Positions 2,600 through 47,615 of a DNA stretch of 64,000 nt are shown here, in pieces (position 1 is the first letter of the stretch; every line of letters begins with the position of its first letter). The position numbers and the translations under genes were made by a program. A model generated the notes under the pieces. That model saw only the letters and a list, made by a program, of their open reading frames with translations. It made no database searches and had not been told where the DNA came from. The stretch is from Eledone cirrhosa (lineage: Eukaryota), in contig OZ024743.1 of the NCBI GenBank assembly GCA_964016885.1, positions 28,396,001 through 28,460,000 of the forward strand. Reading direction: 5' to 3'.

Positions 2600-5500
2600 A
2601 AAACCCCGTGACCAAGAAATACCGGGATGGCGGCCGGCGGGGAATAGCCGTGTCTCTAGGGGAGAACGACCCCTCTAGTCTTGGTTGACACTCGTTCTAG
2701 AAGTGGTAACACGAAATGATTAGCCCTTGGCGGATAAGGATAAAACGCGACAAAATAAAGTAAATGTCTAATGATAAAATCTCATACCGGATCGGCCGTC
2801 ACCCGGGTAAAAAAGGGCCGCGTCCCTCAGAGAGGAACCAGGCTGGGGTCGAAAAATCAGCTAATGGTTCAAACCTTCCCATCACTTCGGAGCTGGAGAC
2901 CTCCCATAACCGGAATACTCCTACTGTTAGCCCTCCATGCTCACCACCAAGAAATCCAAAGAAAAAGAGAGAAAAATGGTCAAGGGAAGATAATAAAGAA
3001 GTCCTTGAGGCTTTCTACACTGCCATGTACTACCCATCAAATACATCGAATACAGAACAGACATATATCAACTGGAAAAAGAAACATTCCGAAAACAGAG
3101 TCTATATTTACAGTAACAAACTAGCCAATATACGAAGAAATATTGTAAAAAAAAAGTTACTAACTGATATAGAAATTGATCAGATCAAGCTATTAGCACA
3201 AAGTCAGCGAAGGGAAAATGAAACATGTGTCAGTGAAAACGAGGTAAATTGTAACACTTCGAATCCCAGGGTTGGGGCGGAATCACTGGCAACAGAACAA
3301 ATTAAAGAAAGGATCGAAAAAGTGGAGGGAGTGCATGCTCAAGATGAAACTCCAAATGAAAATAATGAGATCGTAAATGATAAAGAAATGAATGAGAATG
3401 AACTTGCCAACTTGAAGGATGAAATTATGATCGAATGGATGAAAATGAAAGAATCTGACATGGGGCAACGAGACACCCTCCCTAAGATCCAGAACTCCAA
3501 ACAGAACCAAAAGATAATACACAAGACTAACATAATTCTCAAAAACATTATCATCACAAACAAACTAAACATTACTGATTTAAATCATCTCTATTATGCA
3601 TCGGCTAAAGTCACCACTCACTTATGTGGAGTGAAGATGAAAATACAAAGGAATTCTCACAAGAAATCTACTTGGCAAGAGAACATCAATCGCCAAATAA
3701 ACCTTCTCCGATCTGACATAGAAATTTTAACAAACTATAAAGTAGGTGAACATGTTAAACAAACTAAACTTAGAAAATTGAAAAGAAAGTATAGTATAAA
3801 ATCAACAAGTGACATAGACATGCTGATAGAAATAATCAAGCAAAAAGTGTCGGCCAAAGCTGCTCGTATAAGGCGCTTTGAAAAACGATCTAGATTCTAT
3901 AAGGACAATAATATGTTCAAAAACAACCAAAGAAACTTCTACAGAAAAATTGGTAAGTCAACAATAACTGCTAAATCAATACCACCCAAGGAGGAAGTGC
4001 AAGAATTCTGGGAAAAGATCTGGACCGAAGAAAAAGTTCATAACATACATGCCCCATGGATAGACAGACAAATGAAAGATACAGCTCACCTTGAGGAACA
4101 AATATGAGAAAACATAACAGTTGAACAGTTGCGCTTGGCTCTAAGAAAAACCAGCAAATGGAAATCCCCAGGAAAAGACAAAATACAAAATGTTTGGATA
4201 AATGCCTTCACAGAGTCTCATGAGCTGTTAGCCCAACTTTACAATGAAATAGTTAAGGAGCCAGAAAAGATACCATCATGGCTAGTTAACGGCATTACAT
4301 TCCTGCTTCCGAAGAATGATGAGACAAACAATCCCCAAAATTACAGACCGATAACTTGCTTGACCACAATGTATAAAATTTTAACATCAGTCCTAACTGA
4401 ATACACATATGACCACCTGATAACAAATGACCTATTTCCCATTGAGCAGAAAGGGTGTAAACGAGGCTCATATGGCTGAAAGGATCAGCTTTTGGTTAAC
4501 AAAATGATACTGGAAGATTGTCATAATAGACACAAAAATCTATCAATTGCTTGGATAGACTATAAAAAAGCATTAGATAGTTTGCCACACAGTTGGATTG
4601 AAAAATGTTTAGAGATTTTCAAAATATCCCCCGTTGTCAGGAGGTTTTTGTCATTCAGTATGAAGACATGGAAAACGACACTCCTTTTGAATAGTGAAAC
4701 AAAATCACTGGAAGCTGGAGAAGTTAATATTAATTGTGGAATTTTTCAGGGTGACTCTTTATCACCGCTTTTATTCTGCATCGCACTTATACCATTAAGT
4801 AAAATGCTCAATGAAACAAAACATGGATATAGAGTCTATGACAAAACCATTAATCACTTGTTCTACATGGATGACCTGAAACTATTTGCAAAAAATGATG
4901 AACAATTGCAAGGGCTATTATCCACTGTGGAGCAGTTCAGTGATGACATTAAAATGGAGTTTGGACTAGATAAATGCGCCAAAGCAACGTTCACCAGAGG
5001 AAAGCTGCTGAAGAGTTCAGACATTAATCTTGATCGGGGGAACGTGATAAGAGAACTTGATCAAGAAAAAACTTACAAATATCTAGGTGTTTGTGAAGGA
5101 GACGGAATCAAGCACTCTACAATGAGGGAAAGGATAAGGAAGGAATGTTACCGCAGAGTAAGAGCAATCTTAAGAACGGAATTGAATGCAAGGAATAGGA
5201 TCGATGCCATAAACACGCTTGCCATACCAGTAGTAACCTACAGTTACAATATCATCAACTGGTCAAGCACAGAGATCCGTAGGCTCGATACAAAAATTCG
5301 AAAATTCTTAACCATGCACAGAATGCATCACCCTAAGGCAGATATAGATAGAATATATCTCCCTAGGAAAGAAGGAGGACGTGGGTTAGTCCAGTTAGAC
5401 ATTGCGTTGAAAACTGCAACAATTGGATTATCTACATATCTAAGGGAATCACATGATTGGATGATCAAACTCGTTTTGAAACACGAAAGCATCAAAAGAT

Positions 5501-6555
5501 CATATTCCATTACAAAAGATGCAATAAGATACAGTGATGGACTACAAATTTCAGAAGTCCCATTTACTGCTGAAATGGAAAACACAGAAAAAGCAAAGCA
5601 GGTAAAAGTAACTGCAAAGAAAGAACTGCTACAGAAACTGGCTAAGAAATGGCAAGAAAAGCCTCTGTATGGAAAATACCCAGAGCGAGCTAACAATCCT
5701 GATGTTGACAAAACTTTAACCCATCAGTGGTTGGCATCCTCTGGACTGAAATCGGAGACTGAAGGACTGATTATATCAGCACAAGATCAGTGTCTGCCAA
5801 CAAAAAATTACCAAGCCAACATAATAAAAAATGGATGCAGCCCATTATGCCGTGTATGCAAAAAACAACCAGAGACCATTGACCATATAATTTCAATGTG
5901 CAGTCCTATAGCTCCAACCGAATACCTAAACAGGCATGACAGAGCTGCACAATACATACATTGGATAATGTGTAAGCATTTTGACCTGCCCCATCAAAAG
6001 AATTGGTGGGAGCATCAACCACCTCCCATACTTGAAAAAGATCACATCTTGTGGAACTTTAGCATCTAAACAGACCGAAAAATAGATGCAAATAGACCTG
6101 ATATAATATTGAAGGACTTTAAAAAGAGGGTATGCCTGCTAATTGATATGTCCGTTCCAATAGACAAGAATGTATCTATAAAAACATTTGAAAAATTGAG
6201 CAAGTATAAGGACCTGGAGATAGAAATTGGAAATATGTGGAAATTGAGAACTAAAACAATACCAGTGGTTGTAGGCGCTCTGTGAATGATACCTAAGGGG
6301 TCTAATGATTACTTATCGCAAATCCCAGGAAACCCGCGTATAGGAGAAATACAAAAGATAGTACTAATGGGAACTGCCCATATACTAAGGAAGATTCTGT
6401 CAATATAAGTACATCACAAGTCTAAACACTAAAGATGCATGTGTGAGTATGTATGTTCTTTCTTGAACATGGCGGACCTTGTTGTCTCTTGAGGTCACTG
6501 GTTGTGACTTGGTGATAACTCGTATGAACATAAAGCAAGATAAATGCAACTGTAA

Positions 6556-7905: not shown

Positions 7906-9816
7906 AAAGCGGAAGAGGATGATAATAATAATGATAATAACATAAGCAAGAAAAGAAGGAATGAGAAGGTGAAGGAAAAGATGGATAGACTGCAATGTGA
8001 CAATTTAAAATTACTTCAACTTTGTTTATTTCTATATTTTAGTTAAATTTATATATTTTGTCATCTTAGAGTTTCAAATAAACCCAAATAGGGGGATATT
8101 ATCGATTTATGTTTAAATTTGATATTATAAATTGAATTCACACAGAAATTTGATTTTAGAAATTGCGTTTTCAATTTCAAATTGATTGAAAACCTTCGCA
8201 GTTTTTAAAAATCTATTTAGAATTGTAATTTAGATTTAAAGTTTTTAATATTTTCAACCAATGTGAAAATCGTAGATGAAAGGGTAATCTGTTGGCAAAC
8301 TCATACTACAACCGGTTTCAAATATTTGTGGATTTGGGAAAGGAATGATGATCTGAAATACGGAGGTAAGTATAGCTCTTCCTCAGGCTAGGAAGTTTAC
8401 TTTACAATTGCGTGATACTGGTTTTGTTTCCTCTTTGTGGATCTTCCCAACGTATTTTCTACTATAGCCCCAGACTAAGCTGTGGAAAGTGCTTTCTATT
8501 ACGGACTCATGAGTGAAACTGCACAGACGTAGATTGCACGTCGGGTGGATTATACTAATTTTAGGATCGTGGATTAACCGGTCATCTGTTTGTTTTTAGT
8601 GAAGTTTATTCTGTTGCTATGATCGGATCCGAACTCTAGCTTCAGGCTAATTCGGTATCCTGATGTGTTTAATCTAACTGTAGCAACACATGAGTTGTGA
8701 TCACTCCCTTTTCCAACTGTTCCTCCTTTTCCTTTACTGAGTCATAAAACATCCATTCCCCTTCCTTTAAAATATGGGAACGTATATATTGAAACGAAAT
8801 GAGTACCCCAAAAAAGATCTGGTAAATAGCAGAAACGGTAAAGAAATTAGAAAGAGTAGAGTGTAGTAACATTTTTAAATCTTAAAAAATCAATTAAAAA
8901 TACTATTCATGATAGTCAGACATTCTGTTAGTGTACAATAAATTATGCACGGATTAATCAATTACTTAAATTATTTCCCACGTTTTACAAATTGACTAGC
9001 ATTTCTATATTCGCCGCTTGTTTCGGTTATGTATTTTATGATGTGTATTCAATTTATTGGGTTTTTCAACTGAAATATCAAGGGAATTGAAAAGTAAATG
9101 ACAAAAATAAAATAGTGTTCAATTTTTTAAAAATGCTATTGTAGACTAATACCAAAATTCCTATTAAAACAAAACAAAAAAGAATATTTACATTAGTTTG
9201 CGGTGTTGATCAACTCAGGCGATTAACTTCATAAGATATGTATATGATAAGTTTAATATATAATGAAGAAATTTAGTGAAGCTAAGACGACTGCATATAA
9301 CGAAGATTGATGGGTGTGTTGTAATAAATTTTGTTGGTTTGTTTTTTCACTTGTCTTATTTAGGGAATTTATCAAAGTTTATTCAACATGTTATCTCCTT
9401 TTGATTTAACAATCCCATCTGAACCAATAAGATTGATGAGAAACACATTATATCTGCCTGTTCGAGTATATGTGAATGCTGTATTAATAATGATCATGAT
9501 TAAGAGGAAGAAAGTGAAGAAAGTAGAACTAGAGAAAGTAGATGACAGAGAGCTACAAAAAGGCAAAAAACAAAACAGAATATAGTAATTTGTGTTCTAT
9601 ACATCATTTTCGTTAACCATGTAAAATTTATGGCGTAAATCTATTGTAACATAAGCTGTAGGTGAGGTATTAGCTAATGTTGTGACATCGAAAGTAAGAA
9701 AAACAAAAAATACAGCAGTTATAGCCTAATTCTTATTACTACTACCACCACCACCAACAAAACTACTACTATTACTACTACTAGTAGTAGTAGTAGTAGT
9801 AATGGTAGTAGTAATG

Positions 9817-10031
9817 GTTTCTTTTATAGGCACAAGACCAGCAATTTGGGGGGGGGGGAAAGTCGATTAAATCGACACCAGTGCGTGACTGGTACTTTAT
9901 TTTATCAACCCCGTAAGGATGAAAGGCAAAGGTAACCTCGGCGGGATTTGAACTCAGATCAGAAAGGGCCGTAATTCTATGCTACAAAGCATGGCGTCCG
10001 ACCCTCTACCGATACTACCAATCCACCGCCC
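9817..10031 (-). mobile_element. tRNA-derived SINE (cephalopod-type, Nin/Deu-like core)
   Basis: A-box-like TGGTAGTATCGG, B-box GAGTTCAAATCC, core TTTGCCTTTCATCCTTACGGGGT.GATAAAATAAAGTACCAG and tail CTTGTGCCTA. More than 10 copies occur in the window. Confidence 0.85.
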
Positions 10032-10056
10032 TACTACTACTAGCGATAATAATAAT

Positions 10057-10163
10057 TGTTTCTACTTTAGGCACAAGGCCAGTAATTTGTAGGAAGGGGA
10101 AGGGAAAGTCGATTACATCGACCCCAGTGTATTACTGGTGCTCTATATTATCGACCTCGTAAG
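10057..10163 (-). mobile_element. SINE 3' fragment
   Basis: Core and tail of the same family; head missing. Confidence 0.75.
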
Positions 10164-10164
10164 G

Positions 10165-10813: not shown

Positions 10814-10900
<87 letters not shown>

Positions 10901-11140
10901 TGATCGAGTATCGAAAAATCGGCGCACGAGTTCACGATAAACAAAATTCGAAATGAGCGGCAGAGGGCTCAATAGTTCAGATAAATCAGAGCTATAACTA
11001 TCGTTAAAATACCGTCACACATAGAACAAGTCTAAAATCAACCGTACGATAAAAAAAATCGATAATAGAAGATTCGGGACAATCAGATAAAAAATATCAA
11101 TAAATCAATAAATCAATAATTTAAATGAATGTAAAATCAT

Positions 11141-11276
11141 ACCCGGACCCACTAGAAAGGTGTTAAATCTAGCTTCTTGGGTTTCTGTAAATCCTTAGAC
11201 TGTACTCTATCAGCTCACATATAAATATATAAGACTTCTAGAACAAGCGGACTGGATATTTACTTCTTCAACGAGC
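11141..11276 (-). ncRNA. Variant type I hammerhead ribozyme (family A, copy 1)
   Basis: GCUCG-UUGAAGA-A GUAAAU(AU)CC...GG AUUUAC A-GAAA-CCCA...UGGG-UC^CGGGU. All three stems close. Confidence 0.7.
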
Positions 11277-11757
11277 TTCGTCCTAACGGATAAGAGGCTA
11301 ACTACAAGCAAAATACGCACATGGCATTCGGCAAGGGAGATAACCTCTACATCCGCGAAAACTATTCGAGGAAATGTGGAAATACACATATCGAATAAAA
11401 GTGCTCAATAGACATGTTAAAATAAAACAGGAGCTATTCATCACTCAATAGAATCGACAAAAAAGGAGCAATAAAATTAACTGGTGGATAGCTATGTCCA
11501 GAGCTAAAAATATTAGAATGATCGAGTATCGAAAAATCGGCGCACGAGTTCACGATAAACAAAATTCGAAATGAGCGGCAGAGGGCTCAATAATTCAGAT
11601 AAATCAGAGCTATAACTATCGTTAAAATACCGTCACACATAGAACAAGTCTAAAATCAACCGTACGATAAAAAAATCGATAATAGAAGATTCGGGACAAT
11701 CAGATAAAAAATATCAATAAATCAATAAATCAATAATTTAAATGAATGTAAAATCAT

Positions 11758-11893
11758 ACCCGGACCCACTAGAAAGGTGTTAAATCTAGCTTCTTGGGTT
11801 TCTGTAAATCCTTAGACTGTACTCTATCAGCTCACATATAAATATATAAGACTTCTAGAACAAGCGGACTGGATATTTACTTCTTCAACGAGC
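11758..11893 (-). ncRNA. Variant type I hammerhead ribozyme (family A, copy 2)
   Basis: Identical to 11141-11276. Confidence 0.7.
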
Positions 11894-12358
11894 TTCGTCC
11901 TAACGGATAAGAGGCTAACTACAAGCAAAATACGCACATGGCATTCGGCAAGGGAGATAACCTCTACATCCGCGAAAACTATTCGAGGAAATGTGGAAAT
12001 ACACATATCGAATAAAAGTGCTCAATAGACATGTTAAAATAAAACAGGAGCTATTCATCACTCAATAGAATCGACAAAAAAGGAGCAATAAAATTAACTG
12101 GTGGATAGCTATGTCCAGAGCTAAAAATATTAGAATGATCGAGTATCGAAAAATCGGCGCACGAGTTCACGATAAACAAAATTCGAAATGAGCGGCAGAG
12201 GGCTCAATAATTCAGATAAATCAGAGCTATAACTATCGTTAAAATACCGTCACACATAGAACAAGTCTAAAATCGATAAAAAAAATCGATAATAGAAGAT
12301 TCGGGACAATCAGATAAAAAATATCAATAAATCAATAAATCAATAATTTAAATGAATG

Positions 12359-12423
<65 letters not shown>

Positions 12424-13400: not shown

Positions 13401-13484
13401 GCTATAGATATAGGGAAATCAACCAACCCTTCTACAATTGTTGGTGTAGTTACGAAACATTATATAATGTTCAGTGATAATGAA

Positions 13485-13669
13485 GGGCGGTGGATTGGCA
13501 GTATCGGTAGAGGATCGAACGCCATGCTTTCCAGCATAGTTACGCCCCTTTACGATCTGAATTCAAATCCCGCCGAGGTTGACTTTGCCTTTCATCCTTA
13601 CGGGGTCGATAAAATAAAGTACCAGTAATGCACTGGGTAATTGCTGGCCTTGTGCCTAAAGTAGAAACA
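13485..13669 (+). mobile_element. tRNA-derived SINE, full length
   Basis: Complete head, core and tail. Flanking duplication ATTATATAATGTTCAGT. Confidence 0.9.
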
Positions 13670-13778
13670 ATTATATAATGTTCAGTAAAATTGCTTTAAA
13701 ACACCTTAACAAACAATGAACTTACTCCACAGGACGGGTACGTCTCGAGAAACTCAACAACATCAACAATAATAATGG

Positions 13779-14220
13779 CTTCTGATTTAGGAACAAGGCC
13801 AGCAATTATTTGTCGGACGCAAAATTCGATTAAATCAAGTCCAGTACGTTAGTGGTACTTTATTTTATCGTCCCCGTAAGGATGAAAGGCAAAGCTAACC
13901 TCCGCAGTATTTGTACTCATAACGTAAAGGGACGTAACTATATGCCACAAAGCATGTTGGTTGACGCTTTACAGATACCACCAATCCACCACCCAATAAT
14001 AATAATAATTGTTTCTACTTTAGGCACAAGGCTAGCAATTTGAAGGGGGAGGGGGAAGTCGATTAAATCAAGTCCTGCACGTTAGTGGTACTTTATTTTA
14101 CCGACCCCGTAAGGATGAAAGGCAAAGCTAACCTGGACGGGATTTGAACTGAGACCGTAAACAGATGTAACTATGCTGGAAATCATGGCGTCCGACCCTC
14201 TACTGATATTGCCAATCCAC
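13779..14220 (-). mobile_element. Two tandem SINE copies (13779-13993, 14010-14220)
   Basis: Same family, separated by a short (AAT)n. Confidence 0.85.
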
Positions 14221-15543
14221 AAAATAACAATGGCAGTTCCAACGGTAGCACCTGTCAGGTGACAGTTAAGGAGAACGGGTATGATATTTTCATCATCTCC
14301 ATCGTATTTCAGCATTTACTTCAATCTCATGTTTTGCTGCCTTCAAGAAAGCCATAACATTTCGCCAACAAATAGCTAATATCTGACAGTGACACAAAAC
14401 AACACATTTTCCTGGACGTACAATATGACAGAACCTTGTGTAGGGCTCAGTGCCTGATTTACCATTATGCTTATGGGGAACCAATCTTCCTGCCCCCAAA
14501 AATTTCTACGATGAACATTTTTCAAATGTTTCAGGGATAAAAACTTAACTAGCACAAGGCTTCATTTGTCCTAAATCCGACACTGGTACAGCTGGTATAT
14601 ATTCGCCTAACCTCTCAGATTGGGCCTGATAAGTAACAATTATACTGAAGACAGAATATATATGAGGATGTAGCAGCATATTGTAAAGAACTAATTTCGA
14701 TAAGTTACATTTACTACCATAACGTTTCTATCAATAAACATGTTTTAAAATTATATAAATATATAAATAAGAAATCATAGTTGAGTATAGAAGAGTTGCT
14801 ACAAACTTCCATTATTACCATTGTAATTATACTATGGTATTTTAATTGTCCACTTGGATGAAGCTGATTAACAATCTATAAATCTAATGTACATTCGTTG
14901 CCACATTTACACGACCAAAAGTTTGTCAATGCATTTTATTTTTATTTTTACTTCATATAAATGATATCAATTATTAGCAATATGACAGTAATTCAGCGAT
15001 AGTCGTGGAAGACAACGTGAGCATATAAAAAGTATTAGCAATATGGTAATGCCTCGTTAGAATTCTGAATACATTTTCCTGCGAAAACTCAAATATTCAA
15101 TATCCTTTCAATTCTAAAACCCATGAAAGCATAAACATTTCCGGATAAAATTCCAATTTATTAATTAATAGACTTACAATAATTGACTTAGATAGTAATT
15201 AGCCTATACACACAAACATGGCCACATTCTCGTATAAGTATATACTGTATATGAACACTTATTCATATGCATCTGCATATATAAAATATGAATGTTATAG
15301 ATTACTACAAATGAGCATACACACACACACATCATATGTATATATAATCAGGGATAATTATGGATACATATATACATATAAATACATACATTTATACACA
15401 TATATTCATACAAATAAATCTATTCCTATAAACCTATATATTCATATGAATTAACCTAGATTTATATATATGGTAGAACTGGTGCGGCAAGGAAATATAC
15501 TTCCAAATAGTAACAAATGTACAATAGAGAATCATTTATTACT

Positions 15544-15720
15544 TGGATTGGCAGTATCGGTAGAGGGTCAGACACCATGCTTTCCAGCATAGTTACGTCC
15601 CTTTACGATCTGAGTTCAAATCCCGCCGAGGTTGACTTTGCCTTTCATCATTACGGGGTCGATAAAATAAAGTACCAGTAATGCACTGGGTAATTGCTGG
15701 CCTTGTGCCTAAAGAAGAAA
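15544..15720 (+). mobile_element. tRNA-derived SINE
   Basis: Same family. Target-site duplication CATTTATTACT on both sides. Confidence 0.9.
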
Positions 15721-16144
15721 CATTTATTACTAATAGGCGCAGACACTAATAGGCGCGGGCACTCTTATATAAAGTAACATATTACTGATGAAGCATCTAT
15801 ATGAAGCATAAGCATGAGAATATAATAAATATAATTAAGAAAGAATGGAAAAAGGAATTAGATAGAAATGCTGAATATTAAAATTATGAATAAAAATACT
15901 ATAAAAAATATTCAAATATGACACGGGAGGATTTGATCCGTTGTAATTTCTGATATAATGTCATCTGTGAACCATGGCATTTCAGCAGTGGTGATATCTA
16001 AATTAGTCATTTAATTTCATTGTCACAGTTGACTGATTTAATAGCAAATTTATTTAAATTATTTTCTCCTCTACATTTGACAAACCTTTATTAATATATG
16101 TATGTATGTATGTATGTCTATCTGTCTGTCTGTATGTATGTATA

Positions 16145-16914: not shown

Positions 16915-17091
16915 TGTGTGTGTGTGTGTATGTGTGATTGTGTGTTTGTGTGCGTGTGGAGAGAAGGATACAAAGTGAAAAAGAGGATAAATAAATAAAT
17001 CTTGGGTGTTACATTTGTTTTATAACTCACTCCATGCTTCTCCGTCTACATTAACCACTCATTAATTTGTTTGCTATTGTTTGCTATTGAA

Positions 17092-17275
17092 GGCGGTGGA
17101 TTGCCAGTATCGGTAGAGGGTCGGACGCCATGCTTTCCAGCATAGTTACGTCCCTTTATGATCTGAGTTCAAATCCCGCCGAGGTTGACTTTGCCTTTCA
17201 TCCTTACGGGGTCGATAAAATAAAGTACCAGTAATGCACTGGGTGATTGCTGGCCTTGTGCCTAAAGTAGAAACA
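17092..17275 (+). mobile_element. tRNA-derived SINE, full length
   Basis: Same family. Flanking duplication ATTAATTTGTTTGCTATTG. Confidence 0.9.
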
Positions 17276-19628
17276 ATTAATTTGTTTGCTATTGAAATTA
17301 CACTGGGGAACAAAAACAGTCTCGTGTCACAGGAATGAAACTACTCCAGCTTTATAGTAATTTTTGCGCTGAATCAGATAATATTTTAGAATAGCAAGCA
17401 ATTCAATTTTTAAGCTATATTATAAAGACAAGATCGAGTAACAGATTAAGACCAGAGAGAAGAGACCAATTTGTAATTGAGCAAGTCACAGAAAGTGTGA
17501 CGAAAGTACTTTGACGAACTAACCAATAAGCAGTAATAAAGATAACGTGAAGAAGTGAAAATCATATGGTGCGTATGTTTTTATTGCCAATACTTGCGAC
17601 ATGACCATCCACAAATAAAACAATTATAAGTAAACATTTGTTAAAATATCGATCGACATACTTTTTTGAAAGTGTATCCTTGTTTGGTTTCCTCCGGTAC
17701 TTTGTTCCTGTCATATATATTTAATAGTTCAGCCAGTGTCGACACTCTGGCTTTAGTTGCATTGGTACTGCATTGTCATGGTTAAATTATTTTGATATTC
17801 CACCAAAAGCCACGAAGGCACTACACCGGCTTTAATACTTATGTTTACTTACTGTTTCAGAAGAGTTTAGACCTTGACATTTCTCAAAATGTTTACAAGA
17901 AACTTTACTACGCAGTGTTATCAACTCATTCAAATCTATTTCCTGATAATTTTCTTATTATATGGCCTACAAATGTACCTTCATAAATCTTAGCACCTAT
18001 GATCGGGAGAAATATTTCGCAACTGTTTAAATCTCCAGTTTTCAGTTTATCTAATCCATCTTTTTAACAAACTTTCCAATATTTCTTGGTGTGCTAAGGT
18101 AATATGAATATTTTTTCTGGATCAACAAACAAACCGTTCAAGGTATTTTTCTTTCCTTAGACCAAATGTCGTGCGTTTAGCCAATTTTTCTAAAGCTGAT
18201 AGTTTTGTTTTTGTTACATTCCTACACATAAAAACAACAGTGCTTGGTGTAACCAAGCTTCTACACCATCAAATGTGCAATGACATTCAAAGCTGGACAC
18301 ATATTTTACCTACATTTCTGATACCGAATATTATTTAAAGCAACGTTATGCTGCATGACTCTAGGTCGAGAAATATAAAAAAAAAACATAACACCATCGA
18401 TAAGCTTCTCGTTTCACAACAATACTGTATCATAAACTAGATATGTCAAGACGAAATTTAACAGATTCAACCTATAATTCCTTTTAAATGAACGACGCTA
18501 TCAAGTCAATGGGGATACCTCTAGGTGAACACTCAATCTGTTACAAATTTCACTCAAATAAACTGACCCTCACGAAACAAAAGGGAGATGCTGATCTATG
18601 TACTCCTAGATCCACAATGGTAAAACAATGGAAGAGGTGAACATGGCTATATCTTCTTTGATCGTGAGTTTGTTCAGTCAGTGATGATATAGAATTAAAA
18701 CGACATCGCTTTTTAATATATAGAATACTATTTATAGTCATCAAAATATATACTCACTGAAAACTGACAAAATATCGACGTTGCTCCAGCATGACCATAC
18801 GTCCGAATGTTTAAATTAATCATGAGCAAACTACGGACCATGAGCAACCAGTTTAGCTTTCTGAATGACACCCGTAATTTCAAAATTGCTTTATAGTTTT
18901 TGCTAGTGCCTTATAATGAGTCACATCCTATGCGACCCCAAGATCAAAAAAGGTTTCACATGTTTGGTTTAAGCACTGTAAATAACTAAGGAATTAATAA
19001 CATTCTGCATAAAAAAAGCATATGTAATCATTATTGCGAAAAATGTATTAATATTAGGGATAGAAAAGAAGACACGTCAAGAACGCAAATAAATCCTACA
19101 CTGCGGTTTAGATTTCAGGATGTTGTTTATTCTCATTAAAATACATTATCAGCCGTGTACGAAGTTTCAATTCTCACTCATTTATATTTTACATTTCATT
19201 CTTGAATAGTTATTGATATAATAAAACAGCCCACAAAAGATCAAACAATTGATTGTATCTCATTAGAATGTAGAATATATTTACTGATGCATCAAATTCA
19301 AGAAACCTTATTTTAATTTTACACATTGTTTTTGTTGCGGCACTATTTTCACTAGAAAGAAAGAGAGAAAATAGGTAGAGAAAGCGCGATAGGTAAGAGA
19401 GAGGGAATGCATGTCAGACAAAAAATGTGAACTAATCAAATTGTGGTGCCAGTTCCACTCAGCAGTAAATAGGTGCCATGCCAATGTAGCAGTTTTTATT
19501 GTGATGATGAGGAAGGATAGTGAAAGAAAAAGTGAGACACAATGTGACATAGAAATGCGTCGTATTGTTTTCAAACACAAAACATTATACCAATACACAG
19601 AAAATTGGAGTTGAAATATGTTATAGAT

Positions 19629-21366: not shown

Positions 21367-22026
21367 ATATTCGTGTGTGTTTGCATTTATTATCATTATA
21401 TTTCTATATGTTTAATATATAATAAATATAACACATTTTGATTTGAATAAATGTTAGCTTTCATTGAGCGCTTCGAAAAAAATCTTTACACCTACAAATT
21501 GCATACATATTCTTCGATATCATAGAGGTTAACCACATAAAAATATTATAAGCAGCGTTTCTTTCACGTTTGATAATTACTAAGGAAATTCTTACAATAT
21601 GAGAATTCTTGTAAATATATTCATTAATGAAAATAAAAAAAAGGAAAAAATATCTTTACTGTTCCATAAGATGTTTAGAATACTATAGCATAATATATAT
21701 ATATATAAATAAATAAATATATATATATATATAAGAAAGTAAGTCCATAGAATCATTTGATAAAATATATACAGTATTTCTTCTCCCAATCAGCATAATT
21801 AACCACACAAAAAATCAATTAAAACGAGGCTATACGTTTAAATGCACCTATGAAGAAACAATAGATAAATAAATGATAGCTATTTTATCCGCAATCAATA
21901 GCCACAGAGGATTTACCTAGTATTTCTAATAGCCCATAGAAATTGACCAGACATATAGCCAACCATACACAATTAGGTACAAAATCAAAGTTAGAAAAAA
22001 AAATGTACATAAACATACCAAAATTA

Positions 22027-22111
22027 TGTTTCTACCCCAAGAGGTTTCATTCGCATTTTGAAAATATCCGATCATGGATAAATTCACGAGTTTCGAAATT
22101 ATCAGGAAACA
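22027..22111 (-). ncRNA. Type I hammerhead, core mutated (CUGAUAA)
   Basis: Same fold as the other family B copies, with a G8>A change. Confidence 0.6.
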
Positions 22112-22600
22112 AACTCAATTGGACAAAGATTTTTAAAGGATCCCCGCCAGAGACGAATTCAAAATGGCTAAGAACTGTCACATAGCCAATGGTCAAGTTA
22201 GAAAGCTTGTGATTGGTGCCTGACGGCGAGTAGGCTGGTTGCTAGAAAGCGCAGCCGAATACTGCCTAAATTGTTACTCAAACATACGTGAGTTTATAAA
22301 ATATATAGATTTACATATACATAAACTAGACAGAGCCATAGATATATGCGTGTTTTTGGCAACCGTTCACGGTGTGGCTCAATGACGAATTAATTAATTA
22401 AATAATCAACAATCAGAGCAATATATAAGAAAGTAAGTCCATAGAATCATTTGAAAAAATATATAGAGTATTTCTTTTCTCAATCAGATATATATATATA
22501 TGTGTGTTTTTGGCAACCACTGGCTATGTGGCAGTTCTTAACCATTTTGAATTCGTCTCTGGCGGGGATCATTTAATAAAAATCTTTGTCCAATTGAGTT

Positions 22601-22685
22601 TGTTTCCTGATGATTTCGAAACTCGTGAATTTATCCATGATCGGATATTTCCAAAAAGCGAATGAAACCTCTTGGGGTAGAAACA
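22601..22685 (+). ncRNA. Type I hammerhead ribozyme with extended stem II (family B)
   Basis: UGUUUC-CUGAUGA-U UUCG...CGAA U-GAAA-CCUC UU GGGG-UA^GAAACA. Confidence 0.8.
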
Positions 22686-23308
22686 TAATTTTGGTATGTT
22701 TATTTACATTTTTTTCTTCTAACTTTTATTTTGTACTTAATTGTGTATGGTTGGCTATATGTCTGGTCAATTTCTACGGGCTATTAGAAATACTAGGTAA
22801 ATCCTCTGTGGCTATTGATCGTGGATAAAATAGCTATCATTTATTTATCTATTGTTTCTTCATAGGTACATTTAAACTTATAGCCTCGTTTTAATTGATA
22901 TTTTGTGTGGTCAATTATGCTGATTCGGAGAAGAAATACTGTATATATTTTATCAAATGATTCTATGGACTTACTTTCTTATATATTGCTCTGATTGTTG
23001 ATTATTTAATTAATTAATTCGTCATTGAGCCACATCGTGAATGGTTGCCCAAAACACATATATATCTATATATATCTATGGCTCTGTCTAGTTTATGTAT
23101 ATGTAAATCTATATATTTTATAAACTCACGTATAGTTGAGTAATAATTTAGGCAGTATTCGGCTGCGCTTTCTAGCAATCAGCCTACTCGCCGTCAGGCA
23201 CCAATCACAAGTTTTCTAACTTGACCACTGGCCATGTGTCAGTTCTTAACCATTTTGAATTCGTCTCTGGCGGGGATCATTTAAAAAAAATCTTTGTCCA
23301 ATTGAGTT

Positions 23309-23393
23309 TGTATCCTGATGATTTCGAAACTCGTGAATTTATCCATGATCGGATATTTCCAAAAAGCGAATGAAATCTCATGGGGTAGAAACA
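23309..23393 (+). ncRNA. Type I hammerhead ribozyme (family B)
   Basis: UGUAUC-CUGAUGA...CGAAU-GAAA-UCUC AU GGGG-UA^GAAACA, with one stem I mismatch. Confidence 0.72.
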
Positions 23394-24322
23394 TAATTTT
23401 GGTATGTTTATGTACATTTTTTTCTTCTAACTTTGATTTTGTACCTAATTGTGTATGGTTGGCTATATGTCTGGTCAATTTCTACGAGCTATTAAAAATA
23501 CTAGGTAAATCCTCTGTGGCTATTGATCGCGGATAAAATAGCTATCATTTATTTATCTATTGTTTCTTCATAGGTACATTTAAACTTAAAGCCTCGTTTT
23601 AATTGATTTTTTGTGTGGTTAATTATGCTGATTCGGAGAAGAAATACTGCATATATTTTATCAAATGATTCTATGGACTTACTTTCTTATATATTGCTCT
23701 AATTGTTGATTATTTAATTAATTAATTCGTCATCGAGCCACACCGTGAATGGTTGCCAAAAACACATATATATATATATCTGTGGCTCTGTCTAGTTTTT
23801 GTATATGTAACTCTATATATGATATATTTATATATATATATATATGTGCGTGTGTGGGGGTGTGATGGTGGGGTGGGGGATGTATGTGTGTGTGTGTGTG
23901 TGCGTGTGTGTATATACATGTACATATTTTAAACTTGGGGAGGGTCATATTGTTGTAATACTATTGCCAGAAATAATAACAGAACACACTCACTGTTTGG
24001 ATGGTTTTCGCTTCTGTATCTTTTATATCTCCATAGTTATTTCATTTGCCCATCAATGTTTATCATTGACTGACCAACGGTCAAAAATACAGATATAAAT
24101 ATATATATACATAGTCTAACAAAGTTGTTTCGTTGCACATCTGCAACTGTGGCACTAGTATTACAAAAATATGACCCTCCCCAAGTATAACAAATATTTG
24201 TTTCGACACACGATTTTATATCAAAAACCTCGCAAAACAAATACATAATCACCTCATTTACACAGACGAGAAAACTATATATTCTCGACGGCTTTCAACT
24301 CCAGCAGTAGCAAGCGGTGGGA

Positions 24323-26859: not shown

Positions 26860-26903
<44 letters not shown>

Positions 26904-27196
26904 TATAAATTATGTCCATAGAATAATTTGATAAGATATATACACCATTTCCTCTCCCAATTAGCATAATCAACCACACAAAAAAAACGATTAAACCAGG
27001 CTATAAAATTAAAAGGCACCTATGAGGAAATAATAGATAAATAAACGACAGCCATCTATTCGCGATCAACAGCTATAGAATATTTACCCAGTATTTCAAT
27101 AGCACGTGGAAATCGATTAAATATATCGTCAACCATACACAATTAGGTATAAAATTAAAGTTAGAAGAAAAAATGCATATACACATACCAGGATTC

Positions 27197-27280
27197 CGTT
27201 TCTACCCTTTAGGGTTTCGTTCGCTTTCGGAAATATCCTATCAATGATAAATTCTCGAGCTTCGAACTCATCAGGAAACA
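27197..27280 (-). ncRNA. Type I hammerhead ribozyme, canonical core, extended stem II
   Basis: UGUUUC-CUGAUGA-GUUCG[~39 nt]CGAAC-GAAA-CCCU AA AGGG-UA^GAAACG. Confidence 0.88.
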
Positions 27281-27882
27281 AACTCACTTGGACGAAGATT
27301 TTTCTTAAATGATCCCCGCCAGAAACGAATTCAAAATGGCTAAAAACTGTGACGTGGCAATGGTCAAGTCAGAAAGAATGTGATTGGTGCCTTACGGCGA
27401 GTGGGCTGGTTCCTAGAAAGCGCAGCCTAATATTGCCTAAATTGCATCTCAACCTTATGGGAGATTATCAAATATAAAGATTTACATATACACAAACTAG
27501 ACAAAGTCATATATATATATTTTTTTTTGGCAACCATTCACGATGTGGCTCAATGATGAATTAATAAATTAAATAATCAGAGCAATATACTATAAATTAT
27601 GTCCATAGAATAATTTGATAAGATATATACACCATTTCCTCTCCCATGTAGCATAATCAACCACACAACAAAACAATTAAACCAGGCTATAAGATAAAAA
27701 GGCACCTATGAAGAAATAATAGATAAATAAACGACAGCCATCTATTCGCGATCAACAGCTATAGAATATTTACCCAGTATTTCAATAGCACGTGGAAATC
27801 GATTAAATATATCGTCAACCATACACAATTAGGTATAAAATTAAAGTTAGAAGAAAAAATGCATATACACATACCAGGATTC

Positions 27883-27966
27883 CGTTTCTACCCTTTAGGG
27901 TTTCGTTCGCTTTCGGAAATATCCTATCAATGATAAATTCTCGAGCTTCGAACTCATCAGGAAACA
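27883..27966 (-). ncRNA. Type I hammerhead ribozyme (identical copy)
   Basis: Same as 27197-27280. Confidence 0.88.
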
Positions 27967-28741
27967 AACTCACTTGGACGAAGATTTTTCTTAAATGATC
28001 CCCGCCAGAAACGAATTCAAAATGGCTAAAAACTGTGACGTGGCAATGGTCAAGTCAGAAAGAATGTGATTGGTGCCTTACGGCGAGTGGGCTGGTTCCT
28101 AGAAAGCGCAGCCTAATATTGCCTAAATTGCATCTCAACCTTATGGGAGATTATCAAATATAAAGATTTACATATACACAAACTAGACAAAGTCATATAT
28201 ATTTTTTCTTTTTGGCAACCATTCACGATGTGGCTCAATGATGAATTAATAAATTAAATAATCAGAGCAATATACTATAAATTATGTCCATAGAATAATT
28301 TGATAAGATATATACACCATTTCCTCTCCCATGTAGCATAATCAACCACACAACAAAACAATTAAACCAGGCTATAAGATAAAAAGGCACCTATGAAGAA
28401 ATAATAGATAAATAAACGACAGCCATCTATTCGCGATCAACAGCTATAGAATATTTACCCAGCATTTCAATAGCACGTGGAAATCGATTAAATATATCGC
28501 CAAGCATACACAATTAGGTATAAAATTAAAGTTAGAAGAAAAAATGCATATACACATACCAGGATTACGTTTCTTAAAACAGAAGCGAAAGGGGTACATC
28601 ACACACGTACCAACTACACAGAATTACATATATCTGCATCAAGGACTGTCACTCACACATCAGTCCGCTCAGTCACTGCAGACGATGCCAAAGTCTAGCC
28701 AGGCGCATTAAGCATAGTCTCTTGAGACTGACCTGCCAATG

Positions 28742-28933: not shown

Positions 28934-28942
28934 GGGGAGAGA

Positions 28943-29598
28943 AGAAGATAGTACAGCATAATCGAAGCTCTGGTTGCGGACAAGCTAACGAATGATCTCG
29001 AGAAGTGCAGCCAAAAGCACTCAATAGGGAATTTTACCTTAGAGTTATGACATTACGTTTATACAGCAATGCAAATTGAAGACAGCGACCGAAATGCGAG
29101 CCGCTAGGACCAGAACAACTGAAAAAACGGACTCAGGGAAATGTTTGACAATTACCTGGACCATCGTGGACATATTACATAATATTATATAACATCTCCA
29201 CTAGGTTTCTGTAAATCCGAAATCAACAAAATCCAATTGCAGGGGCCTGCAAGTTAATTGGTCTTTGGAAGGTAGAACAGTGGAATTTACTTCGTCAACA
29301 AGTTTTCGTTCTGCCGCCGCCGGTTGCAAGAACTAGTAGTAAACACTGCTTGTAGTCACGTGGTTTCTCCGAAGGGAAGTAACCCCCGGTTTTGGCGGTC
29401 AAATTAAAAATTTGTACAAAGGATTTAAATCCGTTACAAAAACCGAATAAAAGCCCTCAACTAGATGTTATAAACAAACATAAACAATTAACCAATCAAT
29501 AGAATTGTCTAATTAAATTAATCAATTAATCATTAAGTCTAGGAGATAGTAATGCAAGAAGGTAGTACAGCATAATCGAAGCTCTGGTTGCGGGCAAG
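28943..29598 (-). repeat. One ~614-bp unit plus short terminal redundancy; diverged member of family A
   Basis: GTACAGCATAATCGAAGCTCTGGTTGCGG at 28951 and 29565. Collinear blocks are shared with 10893-12361 (GGTTTCTGTAAATCC, ATTTACTTC.TCAAC, GAATAAAAG...CTCAA, TCAATAGAAT). Confidence 0.8.
29154..29303 (-). ncRNA. Variant type I hammerhead ribozyme (family A, diverged)
   Basis: ACUUG-UUGACGA-A GUAAAU(U)CC...GG AUUUAC A-GAAA-CC UAGUGGA...UCCACGAU GG-UC^CAGGU. Confidence 0.7.
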
Positions 29599-29918
29599 AT
29601 ATACAGGTTGTACCAAAAAATGTATACACAATTTGATTACTTGTACAGGCAATATTTATTAGAATGATGTTGAAGTACGTATACACGTTTGGGATTTACA
29701 CGCTCTCTCTCTGTCTCTCTGTCTCTATATATATACACACACACACACACATACCCCCCCCCCCACACACATATATATATATATATATATATAGGAACGA
29801 GTAGGACCCCGACGGCTGTTCCTATTACCCACTCGTTCCTATTACCCACTCTACTACGCTAAGTATTGAGTACTTTGGTGCGTTATGGTCCACCTGGTTC
29901 CTTGCCATATTTCCTCCG

Positions 29919-30473: not shown

Positions 30474-30548
<75 letters not shown>

Positions 30549-30551
<3 letters not shown>

Positions 30552-30950
30552 TATAAAGTATGTCCATAGAATCATTTGATAATATATATATACACCATTT
30601 CCTCTCCCAATTAGCATAATTAACCACACAAAAAAATCAATTAGACCAGGCTATAAGATTAAAAGGCACCTATGAAGAAATAGTAAATAAATAAACGACA
30701 GCAATCTCTTCGCGACCAACCGCAATATAATATTTACACAACATTTCAACAGCACGTGGAAATCGATTAAATATACGGTCAACCATACACAATAAGGTAT
30801 AAAATTAAAGTTAGAAATGCTTATATACATACCAGGATTATGTCCCTACCCTTGGGTTTCGTTCGCATTTTGATATATCCTATTAAGGATAACATCTCGA
30901 GCTTCGAACTCATCAGGAGACAAACTCGTTAGGACAGATTATTTTCTAAA

Positions 30951-30952
<2 letters not shown>
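30549..30952 (-). repeat. Partial family B unit (third subfamily) between (TA)n tracts, with hammerhead at 30841-30922
   Basis: Aligns to 26901-27310. UGUCUC-CUGAUGA-GUUCG...CGAAC-GAAA-CCC AA GGG-UA^GGGACA. Confidence 0.85.
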
Positions 30953-30986
<34 letters not shown>

Positions 30987-38737: not shown

Positions 38738-38803
38738 TATTTCATTATATATATTTCAGGGATATCATATTAAAAATATGGTATGCCTTCATCAGACAAA
38801 ATA
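38738..38803 (-). ncRNA. Minimal type I hammerhead in the inverted left pLTR
   Basis: Reverse complement of 43715-43780. Confidence 0.75.
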
Positions 38804-40180
38804 CAATATAAACAGTCTTATAAATAGATAGATTTGACATACCTTACAACTTCAACTTCCATTTAAAAAGTTGATTTGGTAGTGAAAAATGTTAGGGACA
38901 GTCATAAAAAGAAAGAAAGAAAGAAAGCGAAGAAAAAGAAGAAATGCATGTAACGAAAAACAGAGAGAGATAGATATAGAGAGATAGATAGAGAGAAGAA
39001 ATTCATGTAAAGAAAAAACAGTGAGAGATAGATAGAGAGAGAAAAAACACAGAGGGAGATAGATAGAGAGAGAGAAGAGAGAGAGAGAGAAAAAATAGAG
39101 AGAGATAGATATAGATAGAGATAGAGAGAAAGAAAATAGGTAGTTGGGCACCAGTTGAATGACGTATCAATGATATATTTATTTATTTATTTATTTATTT
39201 AGTTCTAGTATTAAGGTAGAGAGAGATATGTGTGGTTAGGAGAGAAAACAGCCGTTACATAGAGAGAAAAGAAAAATATCCAGAGATAAACGAGGCAGAT
39301 TTAAAACATTATGTTTCATCAATCTAAAAATATCAATTCGTAGGAATTAGGTATTATAATGTAAATATCAGTATTCATGAATGAGACACGTATCAATAAT
39401 GTGTGAAAAATAATGATCATATGTCTAGTTTAAAATTCCTATGTTTATAATCAGAACTGAGATAAAAAAACTGAGATAAAAAAACTGAGATAAAAAAACT
39501 GAGATAAAAAACTTCAAAAAAATTAAAATACATAAGTATATATGCACTTTCATGAAAAAAAAGAAAAAGAAAATAGGTTATCCCAGATTCGATACTATAG
39601 ACTTCCATGTGAATTTACGTGATCAACTCTGCAAATTCCTATTTCACATGAAAACAATCTCATTGTGCTATAAAAATTCTAGTATACATATATGTGTACA
39701 TACACACAAATATATATAGAATCTACATTAATTTTAACAATACTATTCTTGTCTTTACTCTACATGATTATCGTTCAAGCATAAATAGACAACAGATATC
39801 AATATATCAATAAAAATATTAAAAAATTAAAAAAAATTAAAAATAAAACACAGTATGCCCCGCAAATCAACCACAGAAATCAACCCTTCAAAATTAATTG
39901 ACAATATATTGCCAAGTTCATTATAAGCATCAGAATCAAAAGCAAACAAAACCAAAATTACTTACCAAATCCTGTCTAGCAGAAATCATTCCAAAAGTTT
40001 AGGATACCCATTTGATCTACAGATGGTCTTATATTTATTATAGAAGTTTATCTAGTGTAAAATTTATTTGATATATTTGGAGCATCAGCTTTTAGGGTAG
40101 TTTAATTATTCATGAAGAATGTTTAAAAAAAAGAAATCTTGCTCCAATAGTGTTGAGCGCTTTATATTATAACTGAAAAA

Positions 40181-42400
40181 ATGGAATTCTTTAAGATTTC
40201 TTCCTCTTTAAAAGACATACCTCTACCTAGAAACAAAGACTTTATTAAACAATTAATAGATAAATCGGACTCTTTTATAAAGAGAATCAGGTGGCGTGCA
40301 TTCCACTTTGATAAATCTAATATAAATGAAAATGTCTCGGACTTAGACAAAGTTTTCAAATCTAAAAAAAATCCACCCCCCAACAAACTTTTATTTGACT
40401 TTGAAAACGATATAATTTCTATCATACAAGGAGTCAAATTCAAGAGAAACTTCAAAGGCCAGGAATATCTGAAAGGCATTAAGGATAATATTGAGAGCTT
40501 AGAGAAAACTGAGAAGATCTTGGTGAAATCTGACAAGACCAACAACCTCTATGGAGTGCAAAAAGACATGTATAATGGCCTCATACTGAAAGAACTGAGG
40601 AAAAAGTACAAGGTAGCAGATAAGGCCGAGCTTGAGAAAATGAATGTTGAGGCATCTTGTATAATGCATGAGTTGGAAATTGAGAACAAAACACAACCTT
40701 TCGTGCCCAGGAAACCGAAGATCAATATGAAAGATCACAAAAGAAATTTTGAAAATGACCTGCCAGTCAGATTGATTTCAAAATCTGACCTGGGTAAACT
40801 TAGCAAAAACATTCTAGACAGGGTGATACAGCAAATTAAAAACTTGAATTGTTTACCTAACTTGAGCTTGTGGAAGGGAACTGGAGAGGTTATTGAGTGG
40901 TTTAAAGAAATTAAATATAACAATAATAATAAATTTATTCAACTAGATATTGCTAACTATTATTCATCTATTACCCCTAATCTACTAAATAAGGCACTAA
41001 ATTACGCATTCAAACATACAGACCTAACTAGCAATGAAATGCACATTATATTATCGGCTAGGAAAACATTGATAGAATTTAATAACCAACTATGGACCAG
41101 AGCAGATAGAGATAACAATTTCGACATTACTATGGGATCATCCGACTCAGCTCAGGTAACTGACTTTGTGGGCCTATTTATAATCAATTCGCTCCATAGG
41201 AAAATACCCGGTGCTACCGGAGGTTTATATAGAGATGACATGCTTTTACTTATTGAAAATAATAACTCTGAACTAAATAGAAAAAGAAAACAAATTACAC
41301 AATTTTTTAATTACTTTAATCTAAAAATAGAAATTGAGAATAACCATAGAATAGTCAATTTCCTAGATGTAACATTAAATCTCAACACATGTCTTCACTA
41401 TCCATTTCACAAGTTGAATGAAAACTTAAACTATGTCAGTTTTAACTCTAACCACCCCAGATCTGTTAAAAATACTATAGTGAACTCTGTTCAAAAACGT
41501 ATCTCTAGAATCTCATCTAATAAAAAGATGTTCGACGAAAAAGCCCAGTATTACAATGAACGGTTAGCTAGAGCAGGATATAGTGATAAAATTATGTACA
41601 TAGATAATAATAGACAAACTAACCAAAATAACAACAATTTTAATTACGGCAACAACTTTAACAACTATAATAGAAAGCATTACAATAATTCCACAAGCCC
41701 AAAAAGAAATAGAACTAGGAATATAATATGGTTTGCCCCCCCCTTTTCTCACTAAACATTAAAACCCACATCGCTAAACTATTTTTTAATGCTCTTGATA
41801 ATCGCTTCCCTAGAACACATAAGTATCACTCAATTTTCAATAGACATACTATAAAATTAACTTACTCATCCACCAAAAATTTAGCACAAAATATTAATAG
41901 AATAAATAATAGGAATTTAAAACCTAGCCAAAATACCGATAATAGCATAAATAATATCCAAGTAAACAAATGTAACTGTAGAGATAGATCTAAATGTCCG
42001 TTAAATAACAATTGCTTAGTTAAAAATATAATATACAACTGTAATGTTAAAACGGACTTAAATTCTTTTAACTATGTTGGTTCCACCTCGACAGAATTTA
42101 AACTTCGCTATAATAACCACAAGAATTCTTTCACAGATCCAAGCAAAAAAACCTTCAACATCACTATCAGGCTTACTCTGGCAACTTAAGCATGATAACG
42201 TTGGATATTCGACGGCTTGGAATATAGTCTCAAGAGGGATTCCTTTTAATTCATCTTCTGAGACATGTGACCTCTGCGCGGAGGAGATATTCTTTATACT
42301 AAAATCTAAAAATTCCCTTAATTTACGGACAAATTTATTCAGTTGCTGCAGACATAGATTGAACTCAACTTTTAAATATAAATATAAATTTAAAATGTAG
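40181..42400 (+). CDS. Penelope-like RT + GIY-YIG endonuclease polyprotein (two +1 frameshifts at ~41745 and ~42150)
   Basis: KSDKT, RLI, LDIANYYSSI, ITMGSSDS, YRDD, FLDVTL, SNHP, WFAPPF, CNCRDRSKCPLNNNC, NIIY, YVGST, RYNNH and CDLCAEE. Confidence 0.88.
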
Positions 42401-43714: not shown

Positions 43715-43780
43715 TATTTTGTCTGATGAAGGCATACCATATTTTTAATATGATATCCCTGAAATATATATAATGAAATA
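43715..43780 (+). ncRNA. Minimal type I hammerhead in the 3' pLTR
   Basis: UAUUUUGU-CUGAUGA-AGG...CCU-GAAA-UAUAUA-UA^AUGAAAUA. Stem I is 8 bp including G-U pairs; stem III is palindromic. Confidence 0.75.
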
Positions 43781-47600: not shown

Positions 47601-47615
47601 GTTCACCTGCCGCCT

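Follow-up and report, generated by a model that had tools for sequence, protein, structure and literature searches.

Organization of the retrozyme insertion

The window (the whole 64,000-nucleotide stretch of Eledone cirrhosa DNA that was analysed) contains a tandem repeat embedded in (TA)n on its minus strand, and a distant relative of this repeat about 17 kb away. The following features were delimited:

10896..12361, minus strand: retrozyme insertion made of 2.4 non-coding units of 617 bp each (by repeat comparison)
11763..12361, minus strand: 5'-most unit, from 11-12 nt past a predicted cut to C17 of hammerhead copy A
11146..11762, minus strand: full monomer of 617 nt from cut to cut, predicted to be the RNA unit in its linear or circular form
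10896..11145, minus strand: 250-nt 3' tail reaching the fixed 3' end of the family, the presumed internal start of reverse transcription
11758..11893, minus strand: predicted type I hammerhead, copy A, identical to copy B (U3 at 11888, C17 at 11763, predicted cut 11763/11762)
11141..11276, minus strand: predicted type I hammerhead, copy B (by fold and comparison)
10853..10895, unstranded: (TA)n flank, 3' side
12361..12423, unstranded: (TA)n flank, 5' side
28942..29601, minus strand: distant-branch member of the superfamily, with a 614-nt period and a 46-nt terminal redundancy

The repeat has a GC content of 35% and its longest stop-free frame spans 64-70 codons; segments 11142-11657 and 11759-12274 are 100% identical across 516 nt, at an offset of 617 nt. 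The first base of the array is 12361, 11-12 nt past the third predicted cut (TA microhomology blurs one base), in agreement with the 11 nt given by a first-pass annotation of this DNA. A DNA search of the 3.0-Gb genome G000 returned 1,153 candidates, the 40 scored ones being 98-100% identical, and the superfamily comprises at least 4,400 motif copies in this genome. In 30 fetched loci, all visible 3' ends are located 249-250 nt past the predicted cut and abut (TA)n, and the 5' ends are variable. Each of the other subfamilies has a fixed tail particular to it, in most cases of 200-255 nt; their periods, estimated from 68 loci, range over 525-678 nt. Head-to-tail arrays with U3·G8 cores are also present, one with a 609-bp period over ~39 kb and at least about 40 units listed (G000:C1:81709751-81748764), the other with ~16 units of 612-618 bp (G000:C2:379420227-379428395). 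At three loci (L060, L063 and L075), the hammerhead is split by other repeats inserted in the AT-rich loop of stem III.

The element thus combines the features of non-LTR retrozymes, namely a non-coding tandem repeat, a type I hammerhead in each unit and many genomic copies, with those of the Penelope-mobilised type, namely 5'-truncated copies with terminal redundancy, a (TA)n target and a 3' end that is fixed past the hammerhead. On these sequence features, the array is classified as a Penelope-type non-LTR retrozyme. Since 3' ends are fixed, 5' ends vary and the flanks are (TA)n, the element would be copied in a Penelope-like manner, and the mobilising enzyme is likely a Penelope-type reverse transcriptase.

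Several other elements are encoded in the window: (i) a second retrozyme family with a period of ~690-710 bp, a canonical CUGAUGA core, a 49-nt stem II and a short stem III (21727-23826; 26896-28574; 30544-30954), whose first copy has an inverted, 5'-truncated partner, as in Penelope insertions; (ii) a short type I hammerhead with a CUGACGA core, a 14-nt stem II region and a tiny stem III (57024-57062, minus strand; also in L139 near 6580), which belongs to an abundant fold-back repeat; (iii) Penelope-like ORFs without a Pfam match, reverse transcriptase-like (40157-41755) and endonuclease-like (41719-42189) by eye, enclosed by long inverted repeats (38780-40124 / 42467-43738); (iv) two broken non-LTR retrotransposon reverse transcriptase regions (2764-6069; 53128-55310), the former with an RVT_1 match (4480-6066) and flanked by (AAT)n and (TAA)n tracts; (v) a Gypsy-like pol (reverse transcriptase, RNase H) and gag-like ORFs (45744-48233, minus strand), with a 187-bp direct repeat around them (44618-44804 / 48461-48647); and (vi) a dispersed repeat of 150-350 bp with many copies in both orientations (9806-10164; 13475-14231; 15536-15735; 17082-17279; 59558-61024).

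Hammerhead architecture

Each full junction reads GCUCG-UUGAAGA-A-G...C-A-GAAA-CCCA[26]UGGG-UC/CGGGU. In copy B, on the minus strand, this corresponds to the 5' strand of stem I, GCUCG (11276-11272), U3 (11271), G8 (11266), A9 (11265), an extra A (11264), G10.1 (11263), C11.1 (11187), another extra A (11186), GAAA (11185-11182, with G12 at 11185), a 34-nt stem III, CCCA[26]UGGG, U16.1 (11147), C17 (11146) and CGGGU (11145-11141), with the predicted cut at GUC (11146/11145). The distance from G 11263 to C 11187 is 77 nt, or 79 nt counting both extra As. The conserved U4, G5, A6, N7, A9, G12, A13, A14, A15.1-U16.1 and H17 are all present, and three stems surround the core with stem I open, as in type I hammerheads.

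The motif departs from the canonical core at two points. The 3:8 pair is U3·G8 in the window, not a Watson-Crick pair as in the U3-A8 majority and the C3-G8 subfamilies, and C11.1 is separated from G12 by an A in the window and in nearly all relatives. The hammerhead of the distant-branch member (29154-29303, minus strand; U3 at 29298) has U3·G8, both As and the same first box as the window copies, which bears out the view of the first-pass annotation that these deviations are inherited rather than the decay of one copy. Its measurements of the motif were all reproduced. Its A·A mismatch at 10.1/11.1 needs revision: the two As are better taken for insertions on either side of an intact G10.1-C11.1. 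Its type I fold stands; it missed a predicted leader/stem II pseudoknot and the amplified C3·A8 state, both described below, which are the newer features.

An Rfam scan of the window returned zero hammerheads at E<=5, the canonical-core ones being missed too. The pattern TTGANGAAGTAAAT..ATTTACAGAAAC, by comparison, matched G000 592 times, and its reversed control 0 times. The expectation that CUGANGA descriptors would miss the motif was correct, and it extends to Rfam. Since more than 4,400 motifs of a single genome escape both Rfam and CUGANGA descriptors, the number of hammerheads in animals is underestimated.

Comparative support for the fold

The minimum free energy (MFE) structure of a 156-nt stretch is the three-way junction, but with a z-score of only -0.28, and the three core-closing pairs have probabilities of 0.75-0.84 in a 140-nt piece and of 0.01-0.57 in a 420-nt context. 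Support for the fold is therefore comparative, not thermodynamic. Indeed, RNAalifold, applied to 36 hand-picked subfamily representatives, recovered stems I, II and III unprompted, with 97% of 466 cells paired; none of 500 shuffles was as high, and slid structures gave 18-50%. Two-sided changes were found in 5 of the 13 pairs. Pairs 2-5 of stem II, which are free in the looser patterns, swap among U-A, C-G, G-C and A-U, and 68 of their 76 cells are paired versus 51.9 in shuffled alignments (0/5000 as high). Covariation of stem I alone is weak, 327 of 5000 shuffles being as high. The proposed type I fold is thus upheld by stems that recur and covary across the subfamily representatives.

The genome patterns never included the cut site; even so, of the 72 loci whose stem I + III site is perfect, 69 read GUC there. 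Of the remainder, 34 of the 106 loci examined have no such site and are decayed, interrupted or chance matches. The closing pairs on both sides of the cut site are likewise conserved, though unsearched. Changes at G5 (~48 family members by eye among the 100 matches listed) are a mixture of A, U and C in many subfamilies, and changes at G12 are scattered over subfamilies among the matches listed (100 of 245). Among the 100 matches listed for each, changes at these two positions formed no families and affect roughly 2-3% of copies; they look like scattered post-insertion decay. Taken as sequence comparisons, these results argue that the fold is under selection.

The same data bear on whether the array is an ordinary satellite, or a dead pLTR fragment, amplified at the DNA level and carrying hammerhead letters as unconstrained remnants. 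Long arrays (~16 units, and at least about 40 listed units on C1) and a folding z-score near 0 are what such an origin would produce, but the dispersed copies have family-fixed 3' ends with variable 5' ends, and the stems show compensatory changes. Conservation also reaches 0.95 in the cut-site columns versus 0.65-0.67 in the distal stems and tail, in rows chosen by a pattern that includes the cut site, so that the GUC count is the fairer test. This origin, already disfavoured by the covariation tests on sequence, is considered extremely unlikely.

Insertions flanking the 10.1-11.1 pair

The pair G10.1-C11.1 is G-C in 36 of 36 aligned rows, both letters being fixed by the search patterns. In Penelope hammerheads, a nucleotide is conserved between positions 9 and 10.1 and G10.1-C11.1 is kept (PMC4209133), the consensus in Figure S3 being CUGANGAH-G (PMC4209133). 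Because this insertion is described with the pair retained, the A after A9 is, by sequence position, assigned to the known Penelope insertion. It is rarely altered (6 matches vs 592); a contig of organism C has a C there, together with U3, A8 and A9.

The unusual base, as judged from the alignments, is the A between C11.1 and G12, which is kept throughout the superfamily. A pattern requiring a non-A before GAAA, with U3 only and a pyrimidine at 10.2 only, gave 72 matches versus 63 for the control; ~37 belong to the family by eye and are scattered over many subfamilies, and no clean deletion family lacking this A was found among those 72 matches. Very divergent C3-G8 families have both As, having been found by a pattern that requires them. 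AGAAA occurs in 1 of the 56 rows of Figure S3, its 29th line, which is Cotesia by row order, an uncertain assignment as the columns are lost in the available version (PMC4209133).

In G000, a 1x1 mismatch at the same spot recurs in two unrelated C3-G8 hammerheads with a C after A9 and an A before GAAA (L045:2311 and L094:435, both minus strand). Four further hammerheads (L139:5147; L142:5483; L146:5040; L153:4880) are C3-G8 with both As, a stem II of 65-81+ nt and a minimal, near-palindromic stem III; possibly they are dimer-type and represent an older state of the superfamily.

Variation of the 3:8 pair

In the best-studied ribozyme, it is the C3-G8 pair that places the general acid, and this pair is regarded as close to indispensable. 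Known hammerheads lose much of their speed through single C3U or G8A changes, and C·A+ and U·G wobbles are alike in shape.

Searches of G000 with one loose pattern frame gave 2,924 matches for U3-A8 (control 26), 1,417 for U3·G8 (control 5), including the long arrays, 107 for C3 with a non-G at position 8 (control 4) and tens for C3-G8. The initial idea that U3·G8 is the norm of the family was thus rejected, as was the expected absence of C3·A8, ~90 family members being recognised by eye among the 100 C3/non-G8 matches listed. A U3-A8 family (L172, L052) is nested beside that of the window with support of 100/100. On these counts and this tree, U3·G8 is best described as a wobble state in a mostly U3-A8 lineage: the U3 core noted by the first-pass annotation is real, with U3·G8 in the window and at 29154-29303, and is not a fixed trait of the family. 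Natural U3-A8 covariation has been reported (PMC3088659), and the row of a Saccoglossus Penelope-like element (PLE) hammerhead in Figure S3 starts UUGAAGAA-G, i.e. U3·G8 (PMC4209133).

A 53-row tree was built with positions 3 and 8 masked, from rows found by patterns requiring Y3 and R8. On this tree, position 3 changed 6 times, always between U and C, position 8 changed 6 times, always between A and G, and the pair state changed 11 times, while position 7 took four states in 18 changes; one ladder runs through U-A, C·A and U·G, with reversions to U-A. Unrestricted searches found a purine at position 3 in 4 of 608 matches and, at position 8, C in 3 and U in 0 among the 100 matches listed, so that purines at 3 and pyrimidines at 8 are singletons only. 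A pyrimidine at 3 and a purine at 8 while 7 varies freely suggest a core under selection.

A shift of register would pair U3 with the A one place further along, give the role of A9 to the A after that and leave 'position 8' bulged within a normal U-A core; this is considered very unlikely. It relies on the one spare base between A6 and G10.1 and would account for the run of As and for the free choice of G or A at 8 with U3 (6 changes); in 6 of the 7 C3·A8 tree rows, a G at position 7 could serve as G8. A bulged base should, however, also be C or U, as position 7 is, and pyrimidines at 8 are rare singletons; the organism C contig, with U3, A8, A9 and an inserted C, fits the standard register only, and the published consensus places the insertion after A9 (PMC4209133).

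Predicted pseudoknot between leader and stem II

Two short words are predicted to pair: G-R-A-C, which precedes stem I by 3-5 nt, and its complement G-U-Y-C, which is reached after 10-13 nt of the 5' arm of stem II. The latter sits directly over the 8-bp proximal helix, and the MFE structure leaves it unpaired. In the window, the two strands are:

11280..11283, minus strand: predicted pseudoknot leader strand GGAC, 3 nt upstream of stem I (copy A: 11897-11900)
11249..11252, minus strand: predicted pseudoknot bulge strand GUCC in stem II, single-stranded in the MFE structure (copy A: 11866-11869)

At 29154-29303, the leader carries GAAC and stem II carries GUUC. In the 50 of 53 tree rows that have both anchors (3 are without an anchor; anchors were picked by motif), the four core pairs form in 50/50, 50/50, 50/50 and 49/50 rows. 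The variable second pair is A-U in 34 rows, G-C in 13, G·U in 3 and A·C in 0; two of the three G·U rows are at the switch point on the tree, and a second switch, from C-G to A-U, is seen in L172/L052 and in the organism C contig. Over 109 rows, the best-helix score was 13.4 versus 12.6 after partner swap and 11.0 after letter shuffle, beyond all 100 trials; a test of independent pairs was not significant, with only two independent switches. In the model, a predicted pseudoknot of 4-7 bp would clamp the long arm of stem II. Pseudoknots are known to clamp stems I and II (PMC3088659), and such a clamp would explain stem II lengths of 75-88 nt.

5' ends, cleavage and mobility

Eighty-eight independent insertions were curated after removal of duplicates, of edge-limited loci and of most of those that matched poorly. 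Twenty-two of them reach the upstream predicted cut, and 15 of the 22 read through it. The other 7 stop 8-24 nt past the cut, against 7.2% per 25 nt elsewhere (P=6e-4, ~0.014 after 22 bins); 4 of these 7 came from a search whose hits were ordered by similarity to the window. Two further insertions, including that of the window, stop there on a later lap. The 5' ends of insertions do cluster near the predicted cut. The pile-up coincides with a TA-like word (target microhomology) at the foot of the structure, and it may instead reflect microhomology to (TA)n or copying stalled at the structure; partial cleavage fits both the pile-up and the read-through. Copies ending at exactly one unit (5 of 54, P=0.34) gave no support from lengths for a stop after one full circle of a circular template.

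The fold could also be selected while cutting little or not at all, as a signal by which the borrowed Penelope enzyme recognises the RNA or by which the RNA folds, with multimers arising from uncut read-through RNA. The read-through of 15 of 22 copies and the repeated amplification of 3:8 mismatch states would follow naturally from this. In addition, hammerhead cleavage is unnecessary for insertion by a Penelope-type element in vitro (PMC11167929), many metazoan motifs have low or no activity (PMC4209133; 10.64898/2026.07.22.740005), and 8 of 9 Xenopus retrozyme dimers assayed did not cleave (10.64898/2026.07.22.740005). Against it stand the retention of GUC and of both closing pairs, though unsearched, the lack of families with G5 or G12 changes among the matches listed, the restriction of position 8 to purines and of position 3 to pyrimidines, and the clustering of 5' ends just past the cut site. 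It is regarded as unlikely.

In the loci and in twenty 10-kb stretches that were inspected, no copy linked to a reverse transcriptase and sharing the hammerhead was found, nor was a protein-coding autonomous partner found among the examined loci and the window. The following candidates were rejected: the reverse transcriptase piece of L139, which a microsatellite separates from the hammerhead and which is missing from the sister copy L146; L106, where a retrozyme is inserted behind another element's own hammerhead; reverse transcriptase/endonuclease matches near other loci, which are in mixed orientation; and the PLE-like ORF region of the window (38780-43738), where no such hammerhead was detected by descriptor. 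The published mechanism of Poseidon PAc has reverse transcription initiating at an internal position of the RNA, with AT-rich sites as targets (PMC11167929).

Comparison with known hammerhead systems

Metazoan non-LTR retrozymes resemble the family in being non-coding tandem units of low GC with one type I hammerhead each, dispersed and arrayed, and the 617 bp of the window are within their reported 51-972 bp (PMC7229834; 10.64898/2026.07.22.740005). Their canonical hammerheads have C3-G8, a 4-bp stem II with a loop-loop contact and a short stem III (PMC7229834; 10.64898/2026.07.22.740005), whereas the family of the window has a stem II of 75-88 nt, an A before GAAA, a predicted pseudoknot and a stem III long enough for folding as a monomer.

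PLE pLTR hammerheads share the nucleotide between 9 and 10.1 and G10.1-C11.1, and include U3-A8 families in Schistosoma (PMC4209133). They differ in being minimal, with a short stem II and no or a palindromic stem III, and in working as dimers (PMC4209133); in the available part of this set, U3·G8 and AGAAA are single entries, and no C3·A8 row, repeated switching or pseudoknot is seen (PMC4209133).

Pseudoknotted type I/II/III hammerheads have a Watson-Crick stem I-II pseudoknot clamp in ~40% of examples, and natural U3-A8 covariation and a U·U at 10.1/11.1 have been reported (PMC3088659; PMC11300833). In these, stem II is either short or gives way to the knot (PMC3088659; PMC11300833), whereas in the window family an 80-nt arm supplies the partner strand, as a bulge that follows an 8-bp helix. 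As insertions, the accessible text names A6a and U13a, and none between 11.1 and 12 (PMC3088659).

Finally, Poseidon PAc (PMC11167929) and the (TA)n-targeting Neptune, Naiad and Hydra PLEs (PMC8557442) share an internal start of reverse transcription past the hammerhead, AT-rich targets and 5' truncation; unlike them, the element of the window encodes no protein.

The variant was unmatched in the accessible parts of PMC7151607, PMC3884650, PMC2837043, PMC6155905, PMC10085705, PMC11014351 and PMC13725137; the 'long helix II' of the last is 6 bp. The literature search found no description of an A·A here or of the whole architecture, although precedents may remain in figures and supplements; none of a four-state 3:8 pair, of the combination of features, of an A before GAAA kept superfamily-wide or of the leader pseudoknot; and no report of an amplified C3·A8. 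The suggestion that the variant is undescribed may hold for the combination, but is too strong for U3·G8 and AGAAA, each of which has one entry in the available part of PMC4209133.

Proposed mechanism and significance

Taken together, the repeat and its ends, the stem covariation, the conserved A before GAAA and the switching 3:8 pair are, in the reading that we consider probable, those of a non-coding, multi-copy retrozyme with a 3' end fixed in (TA)n and a type I hammerhead predicted to cut slowly or incompletely at GUC. The tandem array would be transcribed on the minus strand and the hammerhead would fold so that an extra H·A 1x1 pair lies beneath an intact G10.1-C11.1. The leader/bulge pseudoknot of 4-7 bp, its bulge 10-13 nt up stem II, would replace the usual loop-loop contact and let stem II grow to 75-88 nt. 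The 3:8 contact is proposed to need only a pyrimidine:purine combination, so that U-A, U·G, C·A and C-G lineages would all still spread, the wobble forms probably cutting at a lower rate. Cut RNA would yield linear monomers and circles, and uncut RNA multimers; a borrowed enzyme would nick (TA)n, start copying ~250 nt past the cut and run 5'-ward, often crossing one or more junctions and stopping randomly or at a cut 5' end. Given the strong slowing caused by single C3U or G8A changes, the amplification of C3·A8 and U3·G8 counts against this explanation.

A more far-reaching version, which we hold to be possible but doubtful, is that the pseudoknot clamp and the A inserted before G12 free the core from a Watson-Crick 3:8 pair; the family would then be a distinct class of hammerhead with active U·G and C·A forms. 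If so, switching of the 3:8 pair would tune how much RNA is cut and how much is left as multimers for copying.

In summary, the biology is that of a known class of parasite, and two of its oddities have single precedents. The family offers, on a shared scaffold, a graded natural series of the four pyrimidine:purine pairs, the copies of each numbering in the tens or in the thousands. Since all four combinations are amplified in one scaffold, tolerance at 3:8 is directly measurable, and the series bears on the question of whether cleavage matters for Penelope-type mobility.
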